Below are positions 8,648-57,301 of a stretch of 59,729 nt of DNA, one piece after another (the stretch's first letter is position 1; the number at the start of each line of letters is the position of its first letter). This stretch comes from a virus. Taxonomy: Duplodnaviria > Caudoviricetes. A program made the position numbers and the translations under genes. Under the pieces are notes generated by a model. It ran no database searches. It was given only the letters and a program-made list of their open reading frames with translations, and was not told the DNA's origin. The stretch is from the IMG/VR virus record IMGVR_UViG_3300042485_001429, positions 1 through 59,729 of that record; one strand, written 5' to 3'.

Positions 8648-9364
8648 ATGCCGTCAAGCACAATAACATATTCTGACAACACTAGTGGTTGGACATCTTT
8701 TTGGAATTACTATCCAGACTGGATGATTGGGTTAAGCAATGTATTTTATAGCTGGAAGGATGGAAGCCTATATCAACACAACCTGACTGACACTCGGTGT
8801 GTTTTTTATGGTACACAGGTGTCATCAATTGTAAAGACAATATTTAATGAGGACCCATTTACCACTAAAATGTTTAAGTCAGTAAGCTTAGATTCAACAA
8901 GTCCATGGACGGCAACACTTAATACTGATTTAGATAGTGGATCAATTGACTCTACTGAATATGTTGAAAAGGAGGGGACATGGTTTGGTTACGCAAGAGC
9001 TTCAAGTAGTACTTCAAATAGTTTAAATTTATTGTCCACTCAAGGTGTTGGCTCTATATCAACAGTGTCAGGTGCTACAGCTACATTTGGATTTAATATA
9101 ACTACAAGATTGGGTGTTGGAGACAGGGTGTATGTAAACAATTCAGTTATTGGAACCATTGTTAGTGCTACTGCAACAACAATAACAATAACTGGAGGTG
9201 TATTTACGGGTCTTGCTGGAGGTTATGTTAGGATTGAAAAAAATTCAATCGCTGAGTCTTATGGACTACGTGGATATTATATGGACATTGAGCTTGAAAT
9301 AACTTCACAAAGTGAAGTAGAATTATTTTCAATATCTAGTTCTTTATTTAAAAGTTATATGTAA
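8648..9364 (+). CDS. Tail stabilisation protein C-terminal module encoded as a separate gene
   Basis: TITYSD..SGWTSFWNYYPDWM, KMFKSVSL, EKEGTWF, GLRGYY motifs. Confidence 0.6.
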   Translation: MPSSTITYSDNTSGWTSFWNYYPDWMIGLSNVFYSWKDGSLYQHNLTDTRCVFYGTQVSSIVKTIFNEDPFTTKMFKSVSLDSTSPWTATLNTDLDSGSIDSTEYVEKEGTWFGYARASSSTSNSLNLLSTQGVGSISTVSGATATFGFNITTRLGVGDRVYVNNSVIGTIVSATATTITITGGVFTGLAGGYVRIEKNSIAESYGLRGYYMDIELEITSQSEVELFSISSSLFKSYM

Positions 9365-20900: not shown

Positions 20901-21957
20901 TTTTGCATCATTCTCATTAAATCAAAAATCTAGAATGGTATCAGATATTAAGGTTCTAGGAATTAATAGTGGTGCATCAAAGCAGGACAAAATGATAGCT
21001 CTTAGATCTTTAGCATCTCTTCCATTTGAAATGGCGTTATATCAATCTATGAGTTTAGCTATACGTCTTGGATACCTTGCTATTGCAAAGGGAATAGTTG
21101 GAGCAATTGCAGATGACGATGATGAGGAAAAAGAAAAATTATTGGGCATGGAGGTATCTAAGGAGATGAAGAATGCAACAAAATATCCGTTAAGATCTAT
21201 GATTACAGATTTTCTTTCTCCAGCACCAGTGCTTGATAATTTAGTAGTTGGTGGAGCAAATGCTTTACTACGTCAATCAGAAGATAAGGAAATGATAGAT
21301 GATGCAGTATCCAAAAAGAATCTAATGCTTGAGGTTTTAGGAAAAGATAAAATGGATGAAGATCAAAAAGAAAAGTTTATTAAAAAATTTAAAAAAGATC
21401 ACGAGTATCAATTGTTTAATGATGAACAAAAATCATGGGGCACAATAGGTATTGGTACAGATTTGTATATAGAAATAATGGATAATGCAAAAACAGCGAC
21501 TACAGGAAAATATACTCAAGACTACATGGGAAATGAGTCAGAAAGATTCTTGCTTCCAAAAGATCAAGAGAACATTCAAAATGCCGTTATATTTGAAGCT
21601 TTGTTTGCATTAGGAATAGTTCCACGTGATGTCAATACCGTAACAAAGAACATAATAAAGTTATCAAAGAAGAACTCCTTAACAGAAAATCAATTTGAAA
21701 AATACAAGGCTGTTGGAAAAGAGACTGGTAGCAAGGTAACTGGATGGAAGATGGATCTGACTAAATCAAAATCAAAATTAGAGACAACAGTTTCCGAGAT
21801 TGAATGGATTGAAAAAAATGGAGGGTTAACTGAAAAGCAGGGCAAAGAGTATGTAAAACTTTCAGCAGCATTTGATGAGGTTTTATATAGAGATCTACAA
21901 AAAATTCAATCTGGAAAAACAGCTGATCAGATAATTAACTCTTACTCAAAAAAGTAG
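11977..21957 (+). CDS. Giant polyvalent virion/ejection protein
   Basis: 3326 aa; zincin HEAFH (16006-16020), HDFFGH module (17788-17805), long helical C-terminal region. Confidence 0.75.
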   Translation: MNAKYKNLYQELVSRDLTSLDEDLFYNEYSTNDQKFGELYSYLESEGLTSLDPETFKSEYLTDTPVEKKNPDVTELPLETGSSERFTDQTTEDPSRDAWNRPKGDKWFGFNPDTKKYTEGPNKGLTGSDVFSNSGAYILESNPEVLYKRNGQHWLKQVGGKYVPLTKGDIQAREKILNEQAVKASQFQIDWIKNNPKEVKIEYQDIPDDKMEQKFPGITKITKEETKRWQEENKKKPVDTRKPTSETIELAIVGEKIYDLQEEQSKKEFYESPVTSESFTYWLDATGKPRQGLDPVKSQQALDFAKRLIGEPELAQLSKIDKLGKINLNVPSADKFLNKEFYNSNFSFEQDGNELIINSYLPGAKNNEGDIENTISIDLSGKNSGATIKQFLRDNLFYKVDVDRLNKASENTENYIDFILSSSDKLKMTDDRKNKIRDWQQQESAVIEADIQRNDLNNLDKEIKLYESAVLSFNKKVASGKMTQQEFDKENDNISNQYKGILKKQEISSGLLERTKRLEEAQNLLEITYPIEAKGSILGSQLRTFVQSVVATPLKTGLDISLAAGNLMMGDEKFAKFIDGNYDVKKSRGLTDAEIANSAQAKVKELNIGLTDLALTQVTGTNKEYYQDPNNSKIFQALNAVVESVGTAVSGGGSKALTTAAFFSLSYNAMEDQMRGPDFDHLTENEKKLISVPYGLVIGQMEKFGFKVAAGAGKNPLFNKFANSVITTAFKGLPKNAGLVELNSAIQKNIGASIAKGLIKVVGGGVSEGSVEFGQQIFEGVEKFAVNEILKNDNFNQEYFKDGQDLTKEGGWKTLIDQGWDAFKLGFLAGGMTTGGSMVKNNIVDIGSNNKFDIYKNLVLNKEAREGWIASIQKEKENGTISFEEMNKKTDEINRSYSTLIKIPASLTTQSQREAFSLLQERENIENEIKDKEPNLVVKETNRIKEINEALKTTSENATKEDNIQQQEGTAEGGISEYQGTGEGQPEVGVSEGGQRETTVNEADSGDSTVASKVQQEEQVAAYRAEEQAELIKAIPKIESYKVNGEIDKTLMPKTVLAKYNSIYNKYDNLISPLLEPTAEVVIDKPVITTNTTAEVERVKSLTPDSEDGATFNIDGTKYEGVGLVVPVDSMNTTTEELTPEMVADFVAERQEMIGDAGVVKAGIYKFPNSNQVSIDLSVVVPETSREQALEFARLAGQESLFDLATFENIKTGATGENPMSFSPEQHREISKALKEGKIPNVFGTTAKTTNNLLTKENIKEVETKQTTPKNKLIVKAAKMVLNAIPGVKIYMHNNGQEMASAIEASKKQLTKEEKTGLTESSGLYVDGDIHINLESATIGTVYHEAFHALIEKNGMKSGSILLMAKGLKNIISDKGIKQRLDDFVSQYNEDEKAEEYISELGGILSEAEQELTTTKLQQFKTLINNIAKKLGLPVIFSASATAQDAADFINTMSKKLRTGENILADGFQTNIISNKIKSQIPVKVNKNQKLTFVKQSDIIDIKSLVDDIVSKNETVWFWVADQLGRGIYFDSVIDGNHYLDAGPSYALDPENRSKNIIWASGANPKTLNNNIDRSDYIFIISGSPQLSKLFNKKVSGIVRSRIEDKVDFNEFKNSILNSKPTKQILNIIKKYNSYDELFNGSDRKAVLISINEQKSKNTKLNKVLESYDAFIDLNELRDGFYKENDFKLGDVMLVLKPEKIGDKSNHSTYETDIIGSVVGVPDLVINSFDLMTDEVKNKYKNNLERVQQQQIVAPYGMGVKNISKIKFRKNKTDKLTAPVAGNKLFNEPLKQALDIAKSYMKSIGMEYTPVEKITKLDEGLSKRISDAYDKMKDDPTDPEVKAAYEAMAKETLDQYDAITAKGYNLEINNNEPYSSSEDMINDLRDNNRMKIFSTESGFGDTPITEKQREENILLKDSGRKDANGETLLINDVFRFVHDFFGHAKLGNSFGPIGEENAWRVHSEMYSPEAKKAMTSETRGQNSFVNFSGVNDAAFKKRDKARQLRKEGKIDQANQMVGEVYDEMKFADQKIGLLPSFAVEEGAPSKIKFQKTQQETRMDSEAEAIFKKSLDRGVAWNTAIQNVIDYIQISKWYEDASDIDREQKIRDFRQSKKQKLKKAPSVAKIMGTPKPSTVTVTEKTALKDQIRLEARAAREAKVDLNQKRKLLSTAIKGLVKLGRLNTKQAGIIIARVGYVNLDNQVMVDRLAEYAAKVFEKADYQDTLSRAFSFRKEIRKLLKGDIQAEVVGMAKKFSKIDPSMVDDIEKYLDMAEIVKNAIKPSKVNNKKLDVNMRESMNIDSVSEFTNDAIENQERILKEELLAVHSELVDAGVIDDKMSLSEIELIINSLKEKEEDANYKADILTFLSKRIDTMSAIIKDILTYKINPMTGEEVDLTEKNIDLISRMLNIDINNVSIKEAIFIAEAMDNFINNNITSSVEAVIEKHEGVTELENLIADKVVASPLRKYFSTYAGQLFSEQVASMPILFEKLFVGAKKGLMIAKKMGWTALINGVNKAEKIFNTTVDVYFKQYSKTKPNGKSFNDAENVYERGMLAFLSRNVSGTVTQQSEELKRRVEVLKESVKSLLEGSSKEQKMGELYQKVYDKLNIESGDIDVIRANVDKINRSAVGWWINQWGTTYNDLSDISLSVYNTVLSSDTSYTTDRYKLLAKSTSKEIIDPKTGSFGRDIEILDMNKAGVIMPSTRPSASAVSNASRYISLDFDVNNTSAYKGALIDINTAAAIRKIDGFINSKKLAKLIPIEEDREIFTGRIRDYIQAAKNKMPVQSDKMRLLDQLTNFLGGIGVAKALGGIDQVVKQTLPIALSTIVNSGRFDLVMPGSSASVWIDSLGMAISNRGQESQSTIESVDRRLEKAAGLIDKSANAFVDIQQFWLKYFLSKPDVFIAKSSFISYYKQYLSNNNQSTDIDWATHNVNQDAADYAMTMVDRQQNISDTKMAGKIFSSQNSTTKIMRKIFLPFASFSLNQKSRMVSDIKVLGINSGASKQDKMIALRSLASLPFEMALYQSMSLAIRLGYLAIAKGIVGAIADDDDEEKEKLLGMEVSKEMKNATKYPLRSMITDFLSPAPVLDNLVVGGANALLRQSEDKEMIDDAVSKKNLMLEVLGKDKMDEDQKEKFIKKFKKDHEYQLFNDEQKSWGTIGIGTDLYIEIMDNAKTATTGKYTQDYMGNESERFLLPKDQENIQNAVIFEALFALGIVPRDVNTVTKNIIKLSKKNSLTENQFEKYKAVGKETGSKVTGWKMDLTKSKSKLETTVSEIEWIEKNGGLTEKQGKEYVKLSAAFDEVLYRDLQKIQSGKTADQIINSYSKK
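12176..12251 (+). other. Candidate -1 frameshift/slippage site (A10) with short -1 frame extension
   Basis: G AAAAAAAAAA T at 12175-12186; -1 frame reads KSRRYGITLGDWFIGAIYGPND* (TGA 12249-12251). Confidence 0.4.
14846..15037 (+). CDS. Small basic protein nested in the +1 frame of the giant gene
   Basis: MPLKK...SANIRELVK...KQIVAIALSQAK resembles a widespread stand-alone small phage protein; A-rich start context. Confidence 0.7.
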   Translation: MPLKKTTSSNKKVQQKAVSANIRELVKDNQKSGSAKGDNGKPRSMKQIVAIALSQAKYSKKSK

Positions 21958-36987: not shown

Positions 36988-37045
36988 GGTTAAGACAGCA
37001 CCTCGTGAGTGCTGTTTCGGATATTGAATCCATCGTCAGTTAACC
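36988..37045 (-). ncRNA. Type I hammerhead ribozyme
   Basis: Minus strand: GGUUAA CUGACGA U GGAU-ucaau-AUCC GAAA CAGCAC-ucacgag-GUGCUG UC UUAACC; three perfect stems, intact core, GUC triplet. Confidence 0.93.
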
Positions 37046-37231
37046 TTTGTTAAACATTTCTTTTTTGAATCGAATCAAGTGACCCTCCTCGTACTTTAAT
37101 AGGTCGGTTAGCTTGTCTCTATCCACGTCTATTATCCCGTGTATAGGATGCTTGATATCGTTGATGCCGACAAAGTTGATGTTTCTTTTTAATTGCTCAG
37201 TGATTGTTGTTGTTCTGATTGTTCCGTTCAT
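37040..37231 (-). CDS. Early hypothetical protein
   Basis: 63 aa; its stop codon lies in hammerhead stem I. Confidence 0.6.
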   Translation of the reverse strand: MNGTIRTTTITEQLKRNINFVGINDIKHPIHGIIDVDRDKLTDLLKYEEGHLIRFKKEMFNKG

Positions 37232-37254
37232 GTTTTCTAGGGTTTAGGTTGTTG

Positions 37255-37497
37255 TTATCCGATTTGTAATTGACCATCAACGAATGATGGTTGGTATTCT
37301 CCATGTTCCGCAGTCATGTCATCTGTCTCGAAGAACGTGCTGTAACTAGCTAACTTCAATTCGTGACATGCTACTATAACCTCTGCCTCGTCACCAAAAA
37401 TTGGATGCTCGAAGAACTCTATTTCTTGACCTTGGTCGTTAATCATTTTGCCGTAGCTTGTTGGATTTTTATCCATTAATTTTTGATAGTTTAACAT
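37255..37497 (-). CDS. Early hypothetical protein
   Basis: 80 aa; FFEHPIFGD. Confidence 0.65.
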   Translation of the reverse strand: MLNYQKLMDKNPTSYGKMINDQGQEIEFFEHPIFGDEAEVIVACHELKLASYSTFFETDDMTAEHGEYQPSFVDGQLQIG

Positions 37498-37521
37498 AAT
37501 TTCTAGGGTTTAAATTGTTAG

Positions 37522-37665
37522 TTAATACCACACCTCGTCTAAGGTGTAGCTGTACTTCTTACTTACATAACTGATGAATTTGTTCATATGGTTTTCATCG
37601 TTAAATTTACGGCACATAAATACATACTTCCCGTATGCATTCATAAATTGAATTCTTGCAATCAT
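37522..37665 (-). CDS. Small early protein (47 aa)
   Basis: Manual translation MIARIQFMNAYGK... Confidence 0.55.
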   Translation of the reverse strand: MIARIQFMNAYGKYVFMCRKFNDENHMNKFISYVSKKYSYTLDEVWY

Positions 37666-37677
37666 ATTCTTACTTGT

Positions 37678-37788
37678 TTATTTCCATCCCCTTACTTTCA
37701 TTCGGGATGTTTTGATTAATACTTTGTTTAAGAAGTAGCCGATTATTTCATAGCCGTTCTCGATTCTGATGATTCTACTTTCAATCAT
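37678..37788 (-). CDS. First early ORF (36 aa)
   Basis: MIESRIIRIENGYE..., preceded by AAAACCTAGAACCC. Confidence 0.5.
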   Translation of the reverse strand: MIESRIIRIENGYEIIGYFLNKVLIKTSRMKVRGWK

Positions 37789-37812
37789 GGGTTCTAGGTT
37801 TTATTGGTTCGT

Positions 37813-38248
37813 GGTGCAGTATGTATCGCTCATATTAATTAGTCACTCTAACTGCACCTTATTGTTGTTACTTGCACCACATTTATATAGATGGAATCGA
37901 ACCACCACAAGTAGGTTATTATTTGTTTTTTTTGCCTCAAGCCTTTGGTTATGCTATTTAGCGATAGTGTTACGCACTACCTCTGTCTATTTTCGGTGTC
38001 TAACCTCCTGCTTGACCGCAGTCCCGATACTAATACCCTCGAGGGGGGAGTGACCTGTTGTAATATGGATTGCCGATTCCATTTTCAATCTATTAAGTAA
38101 GCAATCATGTTCGTTCTGAGTAGACTAATATTCCGTGCCCTTAATACTTTCATCTAGTCTATGTCATAATGACTGCTAGAACTAAGAGTCTTGTTGTTCA
38201 TCCCCATGTGTGTCGCTTGTTAATCAATCAAGGCTCGTTTGCCTCTCT
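37813..38248 (-). ncRNA. Candidate structured ncRNA / long 5' leader
   Basis: No credible minus-strand ORF; many nested inverted repeats plus a GGTTCGATTCC T-loop hairpin. Confidence 0.45.
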
Positions 38249-38254
38249 AAATAC

Positions 38255-38283
38255 TATAACGCAAGACTATTTAAAATGTTACA
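38255..38283 (-). promoter_or_regulatory. ECF-sigma-type promoter for the early arm
   Basis: TGTAAC-N16-CGTTATA on the minus strand. Confidence 0.55.
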
Positions 38284-38499
38284 ATAAAGTTGCATTTTTT
38301 TTCATTTTTTTTCATTTTCTTTAGATAAACCCACCAATATATGCTCGTAAAGTATTGATTGATTGATAGTTAATTAGTTTATTTTTTTTTCATTAAATTA
38401 TTAATATTTGTTGTTTTTTATGTTGGATTGGGTCAGCCTCCTCAGTCAGGAAGTCTAGCTGTCAAAATTTCCGTGCAGATTTTCGGGTCAGATGATCAG

Positions 38500-38741
38500 C
38501 CGACCGACCGACCGATTTGCTATTCTATTTAACATAATGTAAATTATACAGCAGATAGATTTGGTAGCTGATTAATATATATTGCTGTCGGCTGATGTGT
38601 CGTGTAGCTGACGTGCCGACCTATCGCACAATAGGTAGCTAAGGCGGTAGGGGGTAGCAATAGGTAGCTAGGGTGTGAGGGGGGTTGCCTATGAAAAGCT
38701 AGAATATCCTAACCAAAAATCCCAAATGCAGACCCCCCCCC
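38500..38741. repeat. GC-rich repeat cluster (candidate terminus/packaging region)
   Basis: (CCGA)4 38500-38515; CAATAGGTAGCTA at 38629 and 38658; G-runs; C9 at 38733-38741. Confidence 0.6.
38527..38554 (-). other. dif-like XerC/XerD recombination site
   Basis: Minus strand CTGCTGTATAA-TTTACA-TTATGTTAAAT; XerD arm identical to E. coli dif, 11-6-11 geometry. Confidence 0.8.
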
Positions 38742-38817
38742 TTGATTTTTAAATCGTTTTCCTTTTGGTCAGCTCATCGTCAAACGTATATATTACCCAC
38801 AAGTTCTAAATATTTAG

Positions 38818-38825
38818 TATATTTG
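38818..38825 (+). promoter_or_regulatory. Bacteroidota -7 promoter (TTAGTATATTTGCA class)
   Basis: The same 14-mer recurs around 39516, 40531 and 51373. Confidence 0.7.
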
Positions 38826-38851
38826 CAATATAATATAAAAAGCAAAAAGTT

Positions 38852-39247
38852 ATGAACTACGGAAAAAGAACAACAAACACAACAACACACCGTGACACAC
38901 CACTTTCTAGTACTCCAGAGCCTAAAATTACTATGTTTAAGGATCTACCTGAGGTTACTGTTAGGGCTAATGCTAAACCATTATCATTAAAGACTGTTTC
39001 TCCTGCACAATCTGCAAATGAATTAACTTGGCGGAAGAGAATGTATGAATCAAGTATTCCAAGGGGCATGCAGCAGGCTAAGAAAAAGAAAAAATGGTTG
39101 ACTGGGGATAATGCTCTATTAGGTGCAGGATTAGGCTTTACCGCAGGCGTGGCTGGAGCGATAATAGATGGTGAAATAAAGAACAGAAAATGGAAAAAAC
39201 AACACCCCCCAAGAGATTGGACCAATTTTGATCCTTTCCAGCCATAA
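38852..39247 (+). CDS. Basic protein with RTT leader and Gly-rich hydrophobic segment
   Basis: MNYGKRTTNTTT; LPEVTVRA; ALLGAGLGFTAGVAGAII. Confidence 0.6.
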   Translation: MNYGKRTTNTTTHRDTPLSSTPEPKITMFKDLPEVTVRANAKPLSLKTVSPAQSANELTWRKRMYESSIPRGMQQAKKKKKWLTGDNALLGAGLGFTAGVAGAIIDGEIKNRKWKKQHPPRDWTNFDPFQP

Positions 39248-39272
39248 ACATAATAATAAAATTTTTTAGACA

Positions 39273-39515
39273 ATGAATAATAATCGTTTAACTCGAAATA
39301 CAACAGGTAAGCCATTAGACAAGCAGAACTATAGCTCAATACCATTTAAAAACAAAGACATTGATCGCTTTAAAAAAGTAATGGTCAACTGGCCTGATAA
39401 CATCTCAAACCCTAAAAACGCAGAGTTCGTTAACGAGGTAGCATTTAATAATGGAATTAATGTTAATAAGGTTACTCAAAAAATGTTTAATGATAGATAT
39501 CTTAAAAAAGATTAG
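39273..39515 (+). CDS. Small basic protein
   Basis: Shares Y.SIPFKNKDID with the 40236 ORF. Confidence 0.6.
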   Translation: MNNNRLTRNTTGKPLDKQNYSSIPFKNKDIDRFKKVMVNWPDNISNPKNAEFVNEVAFNNGINVNKVTQKMFNDRYLKKD

Positions 39516-39523
39516 TATATTTG
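39516..39523 (+). promoter_or_regulatory. Bacteroidota -7 promoter element
   Basis: TATATTTG within TTAGTATATTTGCA. Confidence 0.7.
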
Positions 39524-39552
39524 CAGTGTATATATAAACAAAAAAAAACAAA

Positions 39553-40167
39553 ATGGCAACTAGAACAACAACAAAAACAACAAAGCCTACCCCAAATGCA
39601 AACAAGGTTAGTGTCAACACAAACAAGGTTAAGGTCAACACAAATAAGGTAGACATAAACGCTGCAAAAGTTAGAGCTAATGCTGCAAAAGTAGCGGCTA
39701 ACGCTGCAAAAGTTAAAGCTAATGCTAAAGCAGCAGCAGTAGTTACTCCAGCTAAGATTACTAAAACAACAGTAGTTACCCCTAAAAAGTTGGCTCCTAA
39801 AGTGACTCCTGTAAAAGCAAAAGCGGATACTATGCCAGTTAGAAATACTACTGCTAAAGATTATGAAATAATGACTAAGGCAAATCTGGACCGTAGGGGG
39901 CCCCTGTATGTTGGCAGTGGTCAATATGGAACTATGGCACAACGAGACTCATCTATAAATTCCATAAGTAAATTTAATACTGGAGCGAAACTAGGTTCTC
40001 GTAAAGTCACTCAATCCTCTTACTTTCCAGGTGACGAGAGACTAGCAAAAGCAGCTAAACAAAGTAAGCTTAAATATGTTCCACCAAAAAATACAAACTC
40101 TGGACCGTTACGAAATAGACCTCAAACAAAAACATCACAGGAGGAGCTATATAAGAGGTATCAATAA
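39553..40167 (+). CDS. Lys/Ala-rich basic (histone-like) protein with RTT leader
   Basis: Heptad repeats NTNKVxV and NAAKVxA. Confidence 0.65.
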   Translation: MATRTTTKTTKPTPNANKVSVNTNKVKVNTNKVDINAAKVRANAAKVAANAAKVKANAKAAAVVTPAKITKTTVVTPKKLAPKVTPVKAKADTMPVRNTTAKDYEIMTKANLDRRGPLYVGSGQYGTMAQRDSSINSISKFNTGAKLGSRKVTQSSYFPGDERLAKAAKQSKLKYVPPKNTNSGPLRNRPQTKTSQEELYKRYQ

Positions 40168-40235
40168 AACTAATGAGCATACTATTTGAAAATAAAAATG
40201 GTAGATGCGTTCGTCAATAATATATATAAAACAAA

Positions 40236-40523
40236 ATGAGAACAACAAACACAACAACAAAACCAACATTAGGAGTTGCCCGTGACGCAAACCCTGTAAA
40301 AAAGAAGCCAGAACGAGCAAATGCTAAGGGGATGACGGATTATAATTCTATACCATTTAAAAATAAGGACATTGATGTTCTTGGCAGAATGTCCGACATT
40401 GATATGTCACAGCCACCAAGAAGTAAAAAAGCTGATAGGCTTGCTAAAAAACTTGCAAATCCTAACACTTCACTTGATAAGTGGAAAAAAGTAATGATTA
40501 AATACAATAAAGAAACAGAATAA
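40236..40523 (+). CDS. Small basic protein with RTT leader
   Basis: MRTTNTTTKPT; YNSIPFKNKDID. Confidence 0.65.
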   Translation: MRTTNTTTKPTLGVARDANPVKKKPERANAKGMTDYNSIPFKNKDIDVLGRMSDIDMSQPPRSKKADRLAKKLANPNTSLDKWKKVMIKYNKETE

Positions 40524-40711: not shown

Positions 40712-42280
40712 ATGATAGTAAAAGAGATTCACTTTGGCGATGACGGCCAAAAAAAACTAAAGTCTGGCATAAAAAAGATTGCTGGAGCGGTCAAGAGCAC
40801 GATGGGTGCAAGAGGCAGGACGGTACTAATAGAGTCCGAGAATCACATTGGCGGTATAACTGTCACAAAGGACGGTGTAACGGTCGCTAGGTCGATCAAT
40901 CTTTACGATCCCACTGAAAATTTAGCTGTAATGATGATGCGACAGGCAGCTGATCGCACTGCTGTTGTTGCTGGAGACGGAACCACAACGGCAATTGTGT
41001 TGGCAGAGTCTATAATTGACAACGCTGACAATATTATCGACAGTGCCGACAATATTACGGAGGTGATACGTGAGATATCTGAGATAACGACTAAAATTTG
41101 CTCAAGGTTGAGCAAGATGTCCAAGAAATTAAGTGGAAAGAAGCTACTTGATGTTGCCACCATCTCTGCAAATAACGACAGGGAGGTTGGAAAGATGATA
41201 TCTGACACATTTGGCAAGGTAAACGTTGTTACTGTCGAGAACAGTCAGACTCCAAGCACACACGTAGAGATAATCAGTGGAATGAAGATCGATCGGGGGT
41301 TCTCTTCTAAGTACTTCATCACTGATCAAAAGAAGCAGGAGTGTGTACTTGACAATCCTTACGTATTAATCACGGACCACGAGATATCCAACATACTAAA
41401 CATAGAGAAGGTTATCGCTCATGTTATATCATCTAATAAGTCGTTACTAATTATAGGTCAGCTTAGTGCATCTGCACTAAACACGTTAAACTTGAACGTT
41501 GCACAGGGCAAGATAAAGGCCTGCAACATAATACCTCCATCGTTTGGATACAGGAGCAAGGACCTGTTGTTTGACTTGTCTGTCTCGTTGGGTGGAACAT
41601 ACTTCTCTGAGGACACTGGTGACGATCTATCTGTTATTGAGGTTGAGGACCTTGGTCGTGCTTCTAGGGTTATTGTCAACAAGGACATGACCTTATTTAT
41701 GCCGTTACCAGCTATGGCTGATGCGATAGACAAGAACATTCAGGTGTTAAAGGAATCAATTGCTGAGACTACAGACGTTAACGAGGTAAACTTTATCAAT
41801 GAGAGAATCGCAAACATGTCTGGTGGAATTGGCATCATATATGTTGGTGCACTAAGCGACATTGAGCAAAAAGAAAAGAAGGACCGTATTGACGATGCTG
41901 TGTGTGCCGTAAAAGCTGCACTAGAGGACGGAATACTTCCTGGTGGTGGAATCGCATTGATAGATGCATTTGACCTTGAGTTTCCAGATGTAAGTACAAC
42001 TGCTGAAAAGATAATGTTAAACGCTGTTGCGTCTCCATTCAAGCAGATAGTATTAAACTCTGGCAAGAATCCTGAATTAATTTTATCTGAAATGCCAATC
42101 GGTAGAAATATCGGGTATGACGTGAAGAACGAGTGCTACGGTGACATGATCGGTATGGGCATTATTGACCCAACGAAGGTGACAAGAAATGCATTGATGA
42201 ATGCTGTGTCTGTTGCAACCACAATAATGAGTACTGACGCAATAATAACAAACATAAGAGACTATGAAGGTTCTAAATAG
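40712..42280 (+). CDS. groEL: Chaperonin GroEL
   Basis: VTKDGVTVA, AGDGTTTA, GILPGGG, GIIDPTKV. Confidence 0.95.
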   Translation: MIVKEIHFGDDGQKKLKSGIKKIAGAVKSTMGARGRTVLIESENHIGGITVTKDGVTVARSINLYDPTENLAVMMMRQAADRTAVVAGDGTTTAIVLAESIIDNADNIIDSADNITEVIREISEITTKICSRLSKMSKKLSGKKLLDVATISANNDREVGKMISDTFGKVNVVTVENSQTPSTHVEIISGMKIDRGFSSKYFITDQKKQECVLDNPYVLITDHEISNILNIEKVIAHVISSNKSLLIIGQLSASALNTLNLNVAQGKIKACNIIPPSFGYRSKDLLFDLSVSLGGTYFSEDTGDDLSVIEVEDLGRASRVIVNKDMTLFMPLPAMADAIDKNIQVLKESIAETTDVNEVNFINERIANMSGGIGIIYVGALSDIEQKEKKDRIDDAVCAVKAALEDGILPGGGIALIDAFDLEFPDVSTTAEKIMLNAVASPFKQIVLNSGKNPELILSEMPIGRNIGYDVKNECYGDMIGMGIIDPTKVTRNALMNAVSVATTIMSTDAIITNIRDYEGSK

Positions 42281-46097: not shown

Positions 46098-49000
46098 ATG
46101 CAAATAAGTATAGGTATATCTGTAAAGGGAGCACAAACATCAGGTGCATCAGGTGCACCTGTTAATACTGTAATACCTGTAATCTCAGGAACTACTACAA
46201 TAAGCAGTGTTCTTACATCAACAACAGGAACTTGGACTAACTCACCTACTAGTTATGCATACCAATGGAGAAGAAATGGATCGCCAATAGCAAGTGCCAC
46301 AGCCTCTACTTATACATTAGTTGCTAATGATTCAGCAGCAGCCATAACTTGCACAGTAACGGCTATAAATGCTTCGGGTAGTAGTGCACAGACATCCAAT
46401 ACAATTACAGCAGATACCTATTCACCTGTACTTACTTCTGCACCTGTAATATCAGGATCTACTGCTTTAGGAGGTGTGTTATCATCAACAACAGGTACTT
46501 GGACAGGAATACCTACGATTACTTATGCATACCAATGGAGAAGGGGTGCAACAGATATACCAAGTGCTACATCTTCTACCTACACTTTAGTAGTAGCAGA
46601 TTCTGCACAAAACATAACTTGCAGAGTAACTGCAACGAATTCAGCAGGATCAAATAATGTACTATCTAATACAATTACTGCACAAACCTATACAGCACCT
46701 TCTAATGTAGGTGCACCTGTAATTAGTGGTACAACTACTTTAGGTAGCACATTAACATCAACAACAGGGACTTTTACAGGCAATCCAACACCTACTTATG
46801 CATACCAATGGAAGCGAGGGGCTACTAACATAGGCACTAATTCATCAACTTATGTTTTAGTTTCAGCAGACTCAGCGGCAGCCATAACTTGTGTTGTTAC
46901 TGCTACGAATGCATTGGGAAGTTCAAGTGCAACGTCTAATACAATTACAGCAGATACTTACGCAGCACCTGTAAATTCGTCACCACCTTTAATTAGTGGT
47001 ACAACTACAATAGGTAGTCTTTTGACATCTACTTTAGGTGGTTGGCTTAACTTACCTACTAGTTATGCCTTCCAATGGAAAAGAAATACAATTGATATAC
47101 CAAGTGCCACAACATCTACTTATACATTAGTTCAAGCAGACTCGGCAAGTGCAATTACTTGTGTAGTTACTGCTACTAATGCTTTTGGCTCAACACCATC
47201 AACATCTAACACACTTACTACACCAACATATGCTACTGCATTTACATCAACGTGGGCTGTAACCGCAGGTGAAACTATAACCTTACCATATGAGGTTGCA
47301 GGTACATACTCAGGTACTATTGATTGGGGTGACAGCACGACAAGTGTAAATAGTTATGCTAACAGAACGCACACTTACGCAACAGCAGGTACTTACACTA
47401 TTTCAATCACAGGAGTAACTACAGGCTTTAGATTTAACAATACAGGAAGTAAAGCTAACATCAGCACCATTACAAATTGGGGTACTTTAAGATTAGGGAA
47501 TAGTGGCAATTATTTCCATGGTTGTTCAATCTTAACTTTAACTACAGTTGTAGGAACACTAGACTTGACAGGAACAACGGATTTTACTAATATGTTTAAT
47601 AGTTGTAGTTCACTTACAACTGTTAACGGTATTAATTCTTGGAATACATCAGCAGTTACAAGTATTGATAACATGTTTGCAAGTTGCGGTAACTTTAACC
47701 AAGCATTAACATTTAACACAGCATCAGTTACGAGCATGCAAGGTATGTTTATTGATTGCATAAACTTTAATTCTTCATTAACATTTACTACAGGAGCAGT
47801 TACTGATATGTCAACTATGTTTAACGGTGCAACAGCATTTGATGGTTTACTAACATTTACAAGTACAGCATCAGTTACAAGTATGCAAGCTATGTTTTTT
47901 AATTGTCCTAACTTTAATAAAGCATTGTCTTTTAACACAGTAGCAGTTACTAATATGTCTTTTATGTTTGGAGGAGCTTCTGCATTCAATCAAGACATAA
48001 GTTCTTGGAATACAGTAGCAGTTACTAATATGTCTTTTATGTTTTTTGGAGCTTCTGCATTTAATCAAAACATAGGTTCTTGGGACACAGCATCGGTTAC
48101 AAGTATGGCTCAAATGTTTTTTGGAGCTTCTGTATTTAATCAAGACATAGGTTCTTGGGACACAGTGGCAGTTACAGATATGAGTAATATGTTTAATGGT
48201 GCTTCTGCATTCAATCAAGACATAGGTTCTTGGAGCGTGGTAAATGTTACAAACTTTACAAACTTTATGGCAAGTAAAACAAAAGTAACATTCTCTGCCG
48301 CTAATTTATCTGCTATTTATAATGGTTGGAGTGCAAGTGGAGTGTCCCCAAGCATTGCTATAAGTTTTGGTACTGCTGAATACACAGCAGCAGGAGCAGC
48401 AGGAAAAGCAGTATTAGTAGCAGCACCAAATAATTGGACAATAACAGACGGAGGGCAGGAACCTACTGCATTCACATCAACGTGGCTTGTAACAGCAGGG
48501 GAAACTATTACGTTGCCTTATGAGGTTACAGGTACATATTCAGGAACGATAGATTGGGGAGATTCAAGCACATCTACTAATAGCTATGCAAATAGAACAC
48601 ATACCTATGTAGGTGCGGGTACTTACACTATTTCAATCACAGGTGTAACTACAGGCTTCAGATTTAACAATACAGGTAGTAAACTTAATATCAGAACTAT
48701 TACAAATTGGGGTACTTTAAAATTAGGGAATAGTGGAAGTTATTTTTATGGTTGTTCAAATTTAACTTTAACTACAGTTGCAGGAACACTAGACTTAACA
48801 GGCACAAACGATTTTATTAATATGTTTAATAGTTGTAGTTCACTTACAACTGTTAATGGAATTAATTCTTGGAACACAGGAGCAGTTACAAATATGCTTG
48901 GTATGTTTCAAAATTGCAGTAACTTTAACCAAGCATTATCATTTAACACAGCATCAGTACAAAATATGCAAAGTATGTTTAATAATGATGTAAACTTTAA

Positions 49001-51635: not shown

Positions 51636-51843
51636 AAAAGTGTCTATTGGCCCTGACTACATGAAGTGCATGCACTATATGTTAGGGCAAGAAGTTCTTG
51701 ATAGAACTTGGGTAATAGATTCCATACTAAAGGATGACTCTGGATCAATATCTATATGGATAATTAAATCTGGAGAAATAATTAAGTGGAAAACTTTTTC
51801 TAGTAACGTTCCAACATCAATAGAGTTTAAAATAGATTTTTAA
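51622..51843 (+). CDS. Conserved hypothetical protein
   Basis: IRKVSIGPDY...MHY..GQ. Confidence 0.65.
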   Translation: MNIIRKVSIGPDYMKCMHYMLGQEVLDRTWVIDSILKDDSGSISIWIIKSGEIIKWKTFSSNVPTSIEFKIDF

Positions 51844-52403
51844 TGAAGTCACCATACTGTTTTATCATCAAGCCAGTTGATGGAAAGCGGTACGATAATA
51901 TAAGAACTTACGGAGGTAAGCCATTTGTCATAAGCTCATCACAGGAGGACCACAAATCTACAAATAGGTTTGCTGAGGTAATATGCACACCAATGTACTA
52001 CACTGGACCAATAATGCCAGGAGACATAGTCGTTGTTCATCACAACACATTTAAGTTTTACTACGACATGAAGGGTAGACAAAAGAGTAGCTGGAACTAC
52101 TTGTTTGACGACTTATTTATTGTTCAGGACGATCAACTGTACCTTTACAAGTCAGGTGAATCTGATTGGATGGCACCGTCACCATTTTGTTTTGTGAAGC
52201 CAATCCCATCTGAGGATAAGGTGTTCTCATCTTTGGGCAGCCTTGAGGAATTGTGGGGTGAACTAATCTTTACCAATAATGAATTAGAGGGCGTATCTGT
52301 TGGAGATGTAGTTTCATTTACTCCAGACAGCGAGTATGAGTTTAAGATAAACGGTGATTTAGTTTACAGAATGTACAACAGGAACATATGTCTAAAAAAA
52401 TAG
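51843..52403 (+). CDS. Tandem GroES-like-domain protein
   Basis: Two repeats FIIKP...PGDIVVV and FVKP...VGDVVSF. Confidence 0.55.
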   Translation: MKSPYCFIIKPVDGKRYDNIRTYGGKPFVISSSQEDHKSTNRFAEVICTPMYYTGPIMPGDIVVVHHNTFKFYYDMKGRQKSSWNYLFDDLFIVQDDQLYLYKSGESDWMAPSPFCFVKPIPSEDKVFSSLGSLEELWGELIFTNNELEGVSVGDVVSFTPDSEYEFKINGDLVYRMYNRNICLKK

Positions 52404-52663
52404 AGATACTTGAGGCTGGTAAGAAGGCTATTGACGAGCTTATTAAGGTTCTGATGGAGCCAATTATTACTCATGCTGAGGACGACCTTACAGCTGATAA
52501 ATTGAAAAATGCAGCATCTGCTAAAAAGTTAGCCTTTGATGATGCACTATCTATGCTACATAAGATTGAGGAGGAGGAGAACAAAGATAAAAATGTAGAC
52601 ATCGTTAAGATTGATCATGGAAGGCAAGGATTTGCCGAAGGAAGAGCTAAGAATGGAAAATAA
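52388..52663 (+). CDS. Putative terminase small subunit
   Basis: Small helical protein directly upstream of TerL. Confidence 0.45.
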   Translation: MSKKIEILEAGKKAIDELIKVLMEPIITHAEDDLTADKLKNAASAKKLAFDDALSMLHKIEEEENKDKNVDIVKIDHGRQGFAEGRAKNGK

Positions 52664-54872
52664 CTTATACAGGGTTGTTTTAGATCAAGTTCCTAAAAGT
52701 GTTGTAACTACAAGGAATAAAAAGAAAGCATGGTCTTACGGATACAGCAGTGACTATGACTTTGTTGTAATATCTAAGGACGGTACTATAGGTGAGATAT
52801 ACGAAATAGGAGGCCTAAAGGTTGCACTTCCAAGCACCCCAACCAAGGTAGACAACTTTAATAATGTTTGGACTCCAAAAGAATACCCTGAAGAACTACA
52901 AAAAATAAAAACTATTTTTGATTGGAATAGGAGGGACAATATTTTTAAGTCACGGTATATAGACTTAGTCGAGGGTGAGTTTGACAAGAGGGAGTATGGG
53001 TATTGGTTTATGAATAATAACACCCCTACCTACGTGACTGGTAGTCATTACATGTACTTACAGTGGACAAAGATAGACGTAGGACTTCCTGATTTTCGTG
53101 AGTCAAACAGGATATTTTATATTTTCTGGGAGGCTTGTAAGGCTGACGCTAGATCTTTTGGTATGTGCTACCTAAAGAACAGACGTTCTGGATTTTCTTT
53201 TATGAGCTCGTCTGAGTCTTGTAGCACTGGTACTATAGTGCGTGACTCTAGAATTGGTATACTATCTAAGACAGGTTCTGATGCAAAAAAAATGTTTACT
53301 GATAAGGTTGTTCCGATAATACGTAACTACCCATTTTTCTTTAAGCCTATTCAAGACGGTATGGACAATCCAAAGACTGAGCTTGCGTTTAGGGTTCCAG
53401 CTTCAAAGATTACAAGAAGGAACATGGACGATGAAAAGACTGAAGAGATTGATGGTCTTGATACTACGATTGACTGGAAGAATACTGCTGACAATAGTTA
53501 TGACGGTGAAAAATTACTATTGCTAGTTCATGACGAATCTGGAAAGTGGGAGAAGCCTGAAAACATTCTAAACAATTGGCGTGTAACAAAGACCTGTCTT
53601 AGATTGGGATCAAAGATTGTAGGTAAGTGTATGATGGGATCAACGTCAAATGCATTGTCTAAGGGTGGTGATAACTTTAAGAAACTATTTAACGATAGCA
53701 ACCCTGCATCACGATCTGCCAATGGTCAGACCAAGCAGGGATTGTATTCTTTATTTATACCAATGGAATGGAATATTGAGGGGTACATTGATAGGTACGG
53801 ATGGCCAGTTTTTGAAGACCCAAAAACACCAGTTATTGGAATGGACGGAGAAAAAATAACCAACGGTGTTATTACTTGGTGGACAAACGAGGTTACTGCA
53901 TTGAAGTCTGATGCTGACGCACTAAATGAATTTTATCGGCAGTTTCCAAGGACGGAGTCTCATGCATTTAGGGATGAGTCAAAGCAGTCATTATTTAACT
54001 TGACAAAGATATACCAACAGATTGACTATAACGACTCATTAATAAAGGATAGAGTCTTAACTAGGGGTTATTTCCACTGGAAGGACGGTAAGCCAGACAC
54101 GACTGTTGTATGGACCCCAGATCAGAAGGGTAGATTTCTTGTGTCATGGATACCAGAGCAAAACAAAAGAAACAACGTAATAGACAGAAAGGGATTAAAG
54201 TATCCTGGAAATGAAAACATTGGCTCGTTTGGGTGTGACCCGTATGACATATCTGGTGTTGTAGGTGGTGGTGGATCAAATGGTGCCCTTCATGGAATGA
54301 CTAAATTTCACATGGAAAACGCTCCAACAAATGAATTTTTTTTAGAGTATATAGCACGGCCTCAGACAGCGGAGATATTCTTTGAGGATGTTCTTATGGC
54401 ATGTGTATTTTATGGTATGCCAATACTAATTGAGAACAATAAGCAGCGACTACTGTATCACTTTAAAAATAGAGGGTACAGACCATTCTCAATTAATCGT
54501 CCAGACAAACACTACAGCAAGCTCTCTAAGACAGAGATAGAGCTCGGTGGTATACCTAACTCATCTGAGGATGTAAAACAAGCCCATGCGGCAGCTATTG
54601 GCTCTTACATTGAAGAATACGTTGGTTTGGATCTTGAGGGAACATACCGTGACCAAGACTCTATGGGGTCTATGTATTTTATAAAAACCCTTGAAGATTG
54701 GGCTAGGTTTGATATAAACAACAGGACAAAGCACGATGCCTCAATTAGTTCTGGTCTTGCAATTATGTCTACAAAAAAGTACATCGTTAATCAAGAGAAA
54801 ACAAATACAAAAATAAGTATTAAATTTGCAAGATACGATAATACAGGCAACCGAAGCGAAATAAAAAAATAA
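52653..54872 (+). CDS. terL: Terminase large subunit
   Basis: KNRRSGFS Walker A, LLVHDE Walker B, GCDPYD RNase H-like nuclease. Confidence 0.9.
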   Translation: MENNLYRVVLDQVPKSVVTTRNKKKAWSYGYSSDYDFVVISKDGTIGEIYEIGGLKVALPSTPTKVDNFNNVWTPKEYPEELQKIKTIFDWNRRDNIFKSRYIDLVEGEFDKREYGYWFMNNNTPTYVTGSHYMYLQWTKIDVGLPDFRESNRIFYIFWEACKADARSFGMCYLKNRRSGFSFMSSSESCSTGTIVRDSRIGILSKTGSDAKKMFTDKVVPIIRNYPFFFKPIQDGMDNPKTELAFRVPASKITRRNMDDEKTEEIDGLDTTIDWKNTADNSYDGEKLLLLVHDESGKWEKPENILNNWRVTKTCLRLGSKIVGKCMMGSTSNALSKGGDNFKKLFNDSNPASRSANGQTKQGLYSLFIPMEWNIEGYIDRYGWPVFEDPKTPVIGMDGEKITNGVITWWTNEVTALKSDADALNEFYRQFPRTESHAFRDESKQSLFNLTKIYQQIDYNDSLIKDRVLTRGYFHWKDGKPDTTVVWTPDQKGRFLVSWIPEQNKRNNVIDRKGLKYPGNENIGSFGCDPYDISGVVGGGGSNGALHGMTKFHMENAPTNEFFLEYIARPQTAEIFFEDVLMACVFYGMPILIENNKQRLLYHFKNRGYRPFSINRPDKHYSKLSKTEIELGGIPNSSEDVKQAHAAAIGSYIEEYVGLDLEGTYRDQDSMGSMYFIKTLEDWARFDINNRTKHDASISSGLAIMSTKKYIVNQEKTNTKISIKFARYDNTGNRSEIKK

Positions 54873-57301
54873 TGGATAAACCATCAGTTTTAATACAACA
54901 ACGATCATTCCCCAACCAGAACGCAACCGATGAAGAAAAAGCAACAATTGAATATGGCTTAAAGGTAGCAAAGGCAATTGAGGGAGAGTGGTTTAAAAAA
55001 AATACAAATAGTTGTAGGTTCTACAATCAATGGGGCAATTACCATACACTTAGATTATACGCTAGGGGTGAACAACCAACTCAAAAATATAAAAACGAGT
55101 TATCTATAGATGGAGACCTGTCTCACTTAAACCTTGACTGGTCGCCAATACCTATTATTCCGAAGTTTGTTGACATTGTTGTCAACGGAATGTCTGACAG
55201 ACTATTTACAATTAAGGCTGAGGCTCAGGATGTTATGTCTGCTGAACAAAAGAATATGTTTCAGGACATGATCGAGTCAGACATGATCGCAAAAGACTTC
55301 CTTAATCTAACTAAGTCTGAATTTGGAGTTGATGCATTTAATATTGACCCAAATGAATTACCAGAAAATGATGAGGAATTATCGTTGTACATGCAACTTA
55401 AGTATAAGCCTAGCATTGAAATTGCTGAAGAAATAGCAATAGATACTATACTTAAGATGAATGACTATTCAGAAACAAGGAGCCTTATCGATTACGATAT
55501 GACTACAATTGGTCTTGGCGTAGCAAAGCATTCATTTTTAATTAATGATGGTGTAAACATTGAGTATGTAGACCCTGCTAACTGGATACATAGCTACACT
55601 GAAAAGCCTGATTTTTCTGACTGTTATTATTTCGGAGAGGTAAAGATGGTCCACTATACTGAACTAAGAAAGATCAATCCAAACTTAACAGATGAAGAAT
55701 TAACTGAGATAAGAAACGCTAGTTCTGCTTGGTATGATTATTTTCCAATAATAAAAACGTATCAGGACGATGCTTTTTTAAATGAAGTCGTAACACTACT
55801 TTATGTTAACTACAAGACAGACATGAAGTTTGTTTGGAAGAAAAAAATATTAGAGAACGGTGGCGAAAAGGTAATAAGAAAAGATTCATCATTTAATCCT
55901 CCAGTTGAGGAAGGGATGATGTACGAGAAGATAGAGTCTGTTAAGGATGTGTGGTACGATGGTATATTAGTTGGTGGATCTAACAAGATGATAAAGTGGG
56001 AGATGATGAAAAACATGGTCCGACCAAAGTCAGCTTCACAGAACGCTATGCCTAATTATATTGCATACGCACCTAGAATGTACAAAGGAAATGTTGAGTC
56101 TCTTGTTAAGAGAATGATACCATTTGCAGATCAGATACAACTAACACACCTTAAGTTACAACAGGTAATGGCTAGAATTGTTCCAGATGGAGTCTTTATT
56201 GACGCTGACGGAATAAATGAAGTTGACTTGGGTACAGGTGCAGCATACAATCCAGAAGATGCATTAAAGATGTACTTCCAAACTGGTAGTGTAATAGGAA
56301 GAAGCTATACTCAAGATGGTGATTTCAATAATGCTAGAATCCCTATTCAGGAGTTAAATACAAATAGTGGTCAGTCTAAGATGGCTGCACTTATTGGTAA
56401 CTACAATCATAACTTAAGCATGATTCGTGACGTTACTGGAATAAATGAGGCTAGAGATGGATCGACACCTAATCCAGACGCACTAGTTGGAATACAGAAG
56501 ATGGCTGCACTAAGCTCTAATACAGCGACAAGGCACATACTAGAGGCTGGTCTATCTATAACAAGAAGATTAGCAACGTGTATATCATTAAGAATTGGTG
56601 ACATACTTGAGTACTCTGACTTTGTTGAGGAGTTCTCTATGCAGATAGGAAAGTATAACGTTGGTATTCTTGATGAGATAAAAGAATTATATCTACATGA
56701 CTTTGGAATATTTATAGAGATATCTCCAGACGAAGAACAAAAACTAAACCTAGAAAAGAACATACAGATTGCACTACAACAGCAAACAATTGACTTAGAA
56801 GATGCTATTGACATTAGAATGATCAATAACATGAAGCTAGCAAATGAGATGCTTAAGGTTAAGCGTAGAAAAAGAATGGAGACACAGCAGAAGCAAAAGC
56901 AAGAAGAGATGCAGATGCAAGGCCAGATGAACATGCAGTCACAACAAGCGGCAGCAGAACAGAAGGCACAGTTATTCCAACTCGAGGCTCAGGCTAAAAT
57001 GCAGATAAAAGAAGCTGAAGCAAACTACGCTATAAAAACAATGCAGGCTGAAGTTGAAGCAAAGAGATCCTTAATGGAGTTAGAATTTGAGTACAACATG
57101 CAATTAAAAGGTATTGAGGTAGACGGAATGTTAACAAGAGATAAAGACAAAGAGAAGGCTAAGGATAAAAGAGTTGACCTTCAGGCTACTAGACAGTCTG
57201 ACTTAATTAACCAAAGAAAAAATAACTTGCCGCCAATGAACTTTGAAAGCACTGAAGATTCGTTAGATGGATTTGATTTAGAATCTTTTAATCCTAGATA
57301 A
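54872..57301 (+). CDS. Portal protein
   Basis: 809 aa after TerL; PIIPKFVDIVV, RDVTGINEARDG, Gln-rich C-terminal coil. Confidence 0.85.
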   Translation: MDKPSVLIQQRSFPNQNATDEEKATIEYGLKVAKAIEGEWFKKNTNSCRFYNQWGNYHTLRLYARGEQPTQKYKNELSIDGDLSHLNLDWSPIPIIPKFVDIVVNGMSDRLFTIKAEAQDVMSAEQKNMFQDMIESDMIAKDFLNLTKSEFGVDAFNIDPNELPENDEELSLYMQLKYKPSIEIAEEIAIDTILKMNDYSETRSLIDYDMTTIGLGVAKHSFLINDGVNIEYVDPANWIHSYTEKPDFSDCYYFGEVKMVHYTELRKINPNLTDEELTEIRNASSAWYDYFPIIKTYQDDAFLNEVVTLLYVNYKTDMKFVWKKKILENGGEKVIRKDSSFNPPVEEGMMYEKIESVKDVWYDGILVGGSNKMIKWEMMKNMVRPKSASQNAMPNYIAYAPRMYKGNVESLVKRMIPFADQIQLTHLKLQQVMARIVPDGVFIDADGINEVDLGTGAAYNPEDALKMYFQTGSVIGRSYTQDGDFNNARIPIQELNTNSGQSKMAALIGNYNHNLSMIRDVTGINEARDGSTPNPDALVGIQKMAALSSNTATRHILEAGLSITRRLATCISLRIGDILEYSDFVEEFSMQIGKYNVGILDEIKELYLHDFGIFIEISPDEEQKLNLEKNIQIALQQQTIDLEDAIDIRMINNMKLANEMLKVKRRKRMETQQKQKQEEMQMQGQMNMQSQQAAAEQKAQLFQLEAQAKMQIKEAEANYAIKTMQAEVEAKRSLMELEFEYNMQLKGIEVDGMLTRDKDKEKAKDKRVDLQATRQSDLINQRKNNLPPMNFESTEDSLDGFDLESFNPR

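Follow-up and report, generated by a model that had tools for sequence, protein, structure and literature searches.

The phage genome analysed here carries, at 38527-38554, a 28-mer that resembles the dif site of bacterial host chromosomes and reads ATTTAACATAATGTAAATTATACAGCAG on the plus strand by direct reading. The phage very probably borrows the XerC and XerD proteins of its host, whatever the purpose, and sequence comparison suggests that the 28-mer is in all likelihood kept by selection for binding these proteins. As for its use, the reading that we prefer, with a probability of roughly 45%, is XerCD recombination between phage copies, by which circular or episomal forms would be monomerized in the manner of Cre-lox. 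Xer binding and recombination, a second phage copy as the partner, and an episomal state are what we infer from the evidence laid out below. Throughout, the window is the whole stretch of DNA that was analysed, 59,729 nucleotides in length.

The site and its setting in the phage genome

On the minus strand, 38527-38554 reads CTGCTGTATAA (XerC-type arm), TTTACA (spacer), and TTATGTTAAAT (XerD-type arm). The two 11-bp arms stand in inverted orientation around a 6-bp centre, which is the layout of an Xer core site. The features of the site and its neighbourhood are:

38524..38526, minus strand: AGA directly after the XerD-type arm, extending the conserved block; found in 47 of 47 relatives' sites.
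38527..38537, minus strand: XerD-type arm TTATGTTAAAT; unchanged across all 47 sites of the relatives, and shared without any difference by at least 120 bacterial sites.
38538..38543, minus strand: central 6-bp region TTTACA, the would-be place of strand exchange; also found among bacterial spacers.
38544..38554, minus strand: XerC-type arm CTGCTGTATAA; inner TATAA and outer T and G conserved.
38054..38851, no strand: gene-poor, repeat-rich region of about 800 bp that holds the site, from the ORF list; no ORF of 40 aa or more overlaps the site.
37769..38053, plus strand: left neighbour, a 94-aa ORF of no known family; 63-90% identity by tblastn in the loci of eight relatives.
38818-38825: TAnnTTTG word.
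38852..39247, plus strand: right neighbour, a 131-aa ORF without family assignment; one 61-kb relative has a counterpart of 69% identity.
40712..42280, plus strand: phage GroEL, the anchor gene for comparison; phrog_5725 at 4.6e-127, and PF00118.

The initial annotation had described a perfect XerD arm, a 6-bp spacer and a XerC-like arm ending in TATAA, placed in a control region. The arms and the spacer stand as described, while the extent is better given as the conserved block 38524-38548, with TCT preceding the XerD arm. The XerC-like arm does end in TATAA; against the Bacteroidota consensus T-G-T-n-n-TATAA it keeps the T and the G, with C instead of T at the third position. The site does lie in an ORF-free stretch, but this stretch sits between rightward genes, about 750 bases to the right of the divergence point near 37500-37770. 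The region at 38054..38851 may be an origin or a control region.

From the window alone the site is insignificant, and its significance comes from comparison. In the window the XerD 11-mer occurs once exactly and eight times when one mismatch is allowed, where 5.9 occurrences would be expected, and at least as many turn up in 26 of 100 shuffles; at the same threshold there are no extra half-sites in the window beyond chance. The full 28-mer is unique in the window at up to three mismatches.

Repeats flank the site on both sides. Directly to its left is (CCGA)4, at 38500-38515, and to its right are two 26-nt GGTAGC-type repeats, at 38629-38654 and 38658-38683. The relatives have different tetranucleotide-type repeats on both sides of their sites (CCGA/TCGG, TAGG, and GATTGGTC), of which GATTGGTC, a word common beside the relatives' sites, shows no concentration at the site of the window. 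The flanking repeats may be the iterons of an origin. The TAnnTTTG word has the sequence of what we take to be the Bacteroidota -7 promoter consensus; the longer pattern TTTG-N17-23-TAnnTTTG has no match near the site, the scan for sigma-70 promoters and terminators stayed at chance level, and Rfam and tRNA searches returned nothing. A DNA search of 37000-40500 found no similarity to GenBank phages. At the protein level, the left and right neighbour genes are matched in about ten close relatives, and a 204-aa neighbour has no relatives in viral contigs. The cumulative GC skew of the window peaks near 22 kb and has its minimum near 38-40 kb, where the site lies; the skew tracks gene orientation in the window and therefore places neither an origin nor a terminus.

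By gene content (PHROGs and Pfam) the phage is a podovirus, with the terminase at 52611-54872 and the portal at 54872-57301; a leftward block codes for primase-helicase, helicase, SSB and exonuclease. Domains of the crAss 'muzzle' type, a 3326-aa protein without a Pfam family, GroEL and a GroES-like protein were also seen (1023-5081, 8648-9364, 11977-21957, 40712-42280 and 51843-52403). The nearest GenBank entries by terminase are an uncultured 60.9-kb podovirus (69% identity) and the Flavobacterium elemo phages (43.5%), with further kin among Cellulophaga, Tenacibaculum and Maribacter phages. At least 8000 terminase homologues are found in public data at E <=1e-50, and the runs that contain DNA of the phage are lake and freshwater metagenomes. 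One relative with a 96%-identical terminase (P0003, 1080 aa) has the homing-endonuclease and intein families PF05204, PF05203 and PF14528, and appears to be an intein-bearing variant of the terminase.

The record is 59,729 bp long, linear, and estimated to be 99% complete, which leaves about 1% of the genome outside it, and among its 65 ORFs no site-specific recombinase was found with PHROGs and Pfam. A six-frame search with PF00589 and PF00239 gave no matches in the window, and the same search matched in control genomes. The description of the phage as integrase-less is thus upheld, with no integrase or resolvase in the PHROGs, Pfam or six-frame searches. Likewise, PHROGs and Pfam recognised no partition protein, plasmid-replication gene or repressor.

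Conservation among phages and identity to bacterial dif

Relatives of the phage were compared with GroEL as the anchor. A relative of this protein is coded by 145 viral contigs, of which 80 were kept, and a site was called at up to three mismatches to a 22-base core. Of the 52 loci whose sequence reaches 2.8 kb or more upstream of groEL, 43 have the site and 9 lack it; four shorter loci also bear it, for a total of 47, and 24 of the 80 loci are too short to score. All 47 sites lie on the strand opposite to groEL, 1.2-2.7 kb upstream of it. The initial annotation had staked the site on its conservation in relatives, and the same position is indeed kept.

The 47 sites comprise 25 distinct 32-mers, in which the XerD arm and its AGA are kept in 47 of 47, TATAA in 46 of 47, and TG at -5 and -4 in 47 of 47. 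The spacer takes ten forms, always 6 bp long and always ending in A (TTTGCA in 21 sites, TTTACA in 12, TATTAA in 3, TTAGCA in 3, TATCCA in 2, CTTGTA in 2, and four singletons). The flanks cannot be aligned between sub-lineages, and the groEL identities span 63-99%. Near-invariant arms, a free spacer and unalignable flanks are together the signature of an Xer site, and point to selection on two putative protein-binding arms. One sub-lineage (L216, L220, L252 and L267) additionally keeps a 27-base element adjoining the XerD arm, with the spacer and the other flank differing among its members; this element has two ATGTTAA words, which resemble half-sites of the XerD arm in inverted orientation. 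An inverted partial XerD arm is also seen beside the dif of one bacterial locus (L134).

Some relatives do without the site. Five that have none near groEL, one of them 64,170 bp long and estimated to be 100% complete, have none elsewhere and no integrase, so that in 0 of 5 has an integrase replaced dif. The cultured relatives elemoA, phi19:3, phi38:1 and Gundel_1 and the closest GenBank record, MW202828, are also without the site; matches with two mismatches number 10 in these genomes, against 8 in the reversed control. Its absence from some complete and cultured relatives makes the site an accessory gained within the freshwater lineage, and not a part of the core lytic cycle.

In bacteria, the 23-base core is found exactly in at least 120 genome stretches, with one match per stretch and unrelated flanks. 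Among the matches listed, the labels are nearly all Bacteroidota (Runella, Emticicia, Arcicella, Chitinophaga, Cyclobacteriaceae, Polaribacter, Flavicella, Chryseobacterium and others), with a few other MAG labels. In the outer XerC arm of the 120 bacterial sites listed, position -5 is T in 100, position -4 is G in 100, and position -3 is T in 104, where the window has C. Past the trailing A of the XerD arm, the bacterial consensus over 120 sites is G/A, A, A. The exact core is present as a single copy in 5 of 5 whole genomes checked, and XerD and a paralogue are encoded by all five genomes bearing it. With GC skew sampled in 20-kb windows, one chromosome (G002) changes sign from plus to minus in the interval 1.97-2.2 Mb, with the core at 1.973 Mb, and a second (G004) switches exactly at the core, at 2.884 Mb; the skew of a third (G003) is noisy, which leaves the core at the skew terminus in two of the three complete chromosomes sampled. 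This location identifies the bacterial site as the chromosomal dif. The claim of a chromosomal-type dif on the phage is therefore borne out, as its core is identical to a single-copy, terminus-located site of the host phylum.

An even sample of the phylum gave matches to both strict arms in 21 of 401 genomes, against 8 for the reversed control, and the spacers in these 21 genomes are TTTATA (8), TTAATA (4), TTTACA (4), TATATA (2) and three singletons. A looser pattern, allowing one mismatch at most, is matched by 99 of 151 Flavobacteriaceae genomes, where TGTACTATAA-TTTATA-TTATGTAAAAT predominates; its XerD arm is one base off that of the phage. Comparison to host dif, which the initial annotation had put forward for host prediction, points to a host among those Bacteroidota whose dif is of the TTATGTTAAAT type, for example Spirosomaceae, Cyclobacteriaceae, Chitinophagaceae and some Flavobacteriales. 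Kono et al. (2011; PMC3025954) predicted a dif site in all 19 of the 19 Bacteroidetes that they covered. A separate pattern was seen in one genome (G482:C31:7354-12657), where about 18 copies of a word ending in TTATGTTAAAT recur with a 252-base period; this array is probably a tandem coding repeat and not a set of Xer sites, and it shows that the XerD arm alone can arise by other routes.

The same exact 23-base core is found in 25 viral contig stretches, many with flanks unrelated to the window. In three such records, one of them 34 kb long and estimated to be 99% complete, the sole resemblance is a remote terminase or primase (26-35% identity), and two further core-bearing records have no terminase match. 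A tyrosine recombinase was found in 0 of 5 of these other dif-bearing phage records, and no ORF within 1.5 kb of the site is common to the unrelated phage groups; the host phylum is the sole thing that these groups share at the site. Plasmids of Bacteroidota (Dyadobacter, Chondrinema, Persicobacter and others) bear similar sites. With a 40-base query, GenBank phages gave no full site, and only partial matches in microviruses, Lak phages, Rheinheimera phages and an Acinetobacter filamentous phage. The accessible portions of the literature searched describe no tailed phage with a chromosomal-type dif, but only non-tailed phages, plasmids and islands.

Possible partners for a proposed recombination at the phage site

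We propose that the phage DNA would circularize in the cell, where host XerC would bind the TGTnnTATAA arm and XerD the TTATGTTAAAT arm, and that the two proteins would then recombine two phage copies of the site. Dimers or multimers arising from replication or homologous recombination would in this way be converted to monomers; the reaction could also close a terminally redundant genome, as Cre-lox does for P1. The enzyme would come from the host, as it does for the dif, cer and pdif sites of plasmids.

Recombination between phage copies is favoured by the canonical site, the drift of the spacer, the lack of an integrated form, and the plasmids of the phylum with similar sites. TTTGCA, the commonest phage spacer (21 of 47), is absent from the bacterial sites listed, although few bacterial spacers were surveyed (21 and about 100 sites) and hosts with TTTGCA may therefore be unsampled. 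Between phage copies the spacer is free to drift, whereas it is constrained if the partner is the host, and TTTGCA thus supports partners that are both phage. Counting against this reading, no partition or plasmid-replication genes are recognised, and the site is missing from some complete relatives. Since packaging in tailed phages normally starts from concatemers, a purely lytic cycle would gain nothing obvious from resolving multimers. Resolution would pay mainly for a genome that at times stays in dividing cells as an episome, which hints at, but does not prove, a carrier or plasmid-like state. Bare dif sites on E. coli plasmids recombine both ways, and need FtsK at the septum.

We consider it unlikely that the site serves integration, in which a circular phage genome would recombine with the host dif through XerCD, as in integrative mobile elements exploiting Xer (IMEX), and would give a reversible, integrase-free lysogeny at the terminus. 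The identity of the core, including its spacer, to real host dif sites would suit such a mechanism, as would the lack of a recombinase of the phage's own; integration of this kind is also proposed for small ssDNA phages of the same phylum (PMC3091885, PMC9719478). When the ORFs of 105 viral loci were compared with the flanks of 120 bacterial dif loci, 40 of which have flanks of only about 300 bases, one weak match of 29% identity was obtained, and the search for prophages at Bacteroidota dif, suggested by the initial annotation, otherwise found none. The phage terminase was found in 0 of 251 Bacteroidota genomes, with a query that does find distant viral relatives.

The sizes of assembled contigs also argue against integration, in that they stop at the size of the phage. 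No contig exceeds 65,159 bp in 119 of the 120 best terminase clusters; for the relatives, the upper limits are 61,010 bp across 79 viral loci, 72,151 bp across 80 metagenome loci and 65,113 bp across the 80 GroEL loci. The sole exception among the best 120 clusters, P0058, has a contig of 125,743 bp, about twice the genome length, and is not among the 79 viral or 80 metagenome loci. This contig could be a dimer assembly or a prophage, and in the latter case would favour integration.

In the relatives' loci inspected the site is internal and the sequence is continuous across it, which again speaks against an integrated form, and phage contigs bridge the site in lake runs (Logan contigs; record 1 of run X1, record 5 of X3 and record 19 of X5). 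No joint between phage and host is listed in the contigs of four lake runs, although contigs cannot show rare junctions. Run X5 has loose ends before 38516 and behind 38548, and our reading is that they belong to one contig carrying the dif of another organism or phage. Four viral contigs end near the site, at 35 nt (L190), 4 nt (L200), 58 nt (L220) and 67 nt (L025). By a rough estimate, four ends within 70 bases are far above random expectation and would be in line with integration; an assembly break at a shared word, adjoining strain variation, or real recombination are possible causes.

Two directly repeated canonical dif sites are, from what is known of Xer and FtsK, excised quickly, which makes stable integration unlikely. 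FtsK-activated XerCD would excise a canonical dif, while stable IMEX have deviant arms or spacers. The phage resembles IMEX in coding for no recombinase, but differs from them in that both arms and the spacer are canonical and not those of a deviating att site, and no copy integrated at a host dif between two dif-like sites was seen in the samples searched. The phage spacers TTTGCA, TATCCA and CTTGTA were also unseen in the bacteria surveyed. The proposal of the initial annotation that the phage integrates at the host dif is thus disfavoured, as neither an integrated copy nor a host junction was found among 120 dif loci, in 251 genomes or in contig sizes, P0058 excepted. Its suggestion of a cryptic temperate or plasmid-like lifestyle stays hypothetical, and the canonical dif, unlike the deviant att of stable IMEX, speaks against stable lysogeny.

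We regard as improbable a role in which the site only binds host XerC and XerD, for the placement of DNA, for stopping or engaging a motor of the FtsK/SMC type, or for the regulation of an origin or promoter. Constraint on the arms and their 6-bp spacing with a free spacer sequence is consistent with such docking, as are the repeat-rich control or origin-like region and the dispensability of the site in some relatives. However, a full two-arm site with an exact 6-bp, A-ending spacer answers to a need of catalysis and exceeds that of binding, and the half-sites in the window stay at chance level. We know of no precedent in phages for docking of Xer without recombination.

It is very improbable that the site lacks an Xer function and is passive host DNA, the target of a phage protein or a dif-like promoter, for although the 11-mer alone is insignificant in the window and elemoA, phi19:3, phi38:1, Gundel_1 and MW202828 lack the site, it stands out as a conserved island within flanks that defy alignment, over groEL identities of 63-99%, its exact core recurs in phage lineages sharing only the host phylum, its arm-versus-spacer pattern fits Xer sites, and it has neither an Rfam match nor a Bacteroidota-type promoter pattern.

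Comparison with known Xer systems

The phage site has the same 11 + 6 + 11 layout as the chromosomal dif of Bacteroidota, matches it at all 23 core bases, and keeps T and G in the outer part of the XerC arm. It differs in lying on a phage of about 60 kb and not at a chromosome terminus, and in having C in place of T as the third outer base of the XerC arm.

Recombination between phage copies, which we prefer, would be most similar in purpose to Cre-lox of phage P1, which cyclizes the injected genome and resolves dimers of the plasmid prophage. The proposed job is alike; P1 codes for its own recombinase, whereas our phage would depend on that of the host, and its existence as a plasmid prophage is only proposed. 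The Xer sites of plasmids (cer, psi and the pdif sites of Acinetobacter) likewise provide a core site by which an extrachromosomal replicon depends on host XerCD. The cer and psi sites need accessory sequences of about 180 bp and have altered spacers, and pdif sites pair around cargo. In contrast, the phage has a single canonical site; its flanks are repeat-rich but lineage-specific, and no shared accessory element or ORF that could give selectivity for resolution is seen across lineages.

It is possible, if doubtful, that a very abundant freshwater lineage of seemingly lytic podophages without an integrase, and at least three other lineages of Bacteroidota phages, borrow XerCD-dif as their Cre-lox, with a hidden non-lytic phase (an episome or a transient insertion at the terminus) that is invisible to annotation, and with the site as a crossover point as well. 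If so, any two phages with the same spacer could recombine, and a fixed crossover point would swap the replication and structural halves of their genomes. If XerCD acts on the site, a strictly lytic annotation may hide a persistent state that depends on the host, and this would matter for models of viruses and hosts in lakes and seas and for the prediction of lifestyle. The arm and spacer type also offers a handle on the host, narrowing it within the Bacteroidota.

Use of host Xer is textbook knowledge for filamentous phages, some small ssDNA and double-jelly-roll phages, plasmids and islands; among the IMEX of Vibrio, CTXphi, VGJphi and TLCphi use it. Within the host phylum of our phage, two reports describe the Bacteroidetes microvirus proviruses BMV1-7 (PMC3091885) and the PhiCjT23-like prophages of Flavobacterium (PMC9719478), both integrated between two dif-like sites. 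The phage has in common with IMEX the lack of its own recombinase and a dif-like site in a non-coding region, and shares the host phylum of BMV1-7 and PhiCjT23. These elements are small ssDNA or filamentous phages found integrated, whereas here we have a 60-kb tailed dsDNA phage with a canonical dif, for which no integrated copy was found. In a Flavobacteriaceae genome of our survey (G460), two dif-like sites lie 4.1 kb from each other on one strand (C23:42551-42577 and 46639-46665), and this pair could be a small Xer-dependent integrated element.
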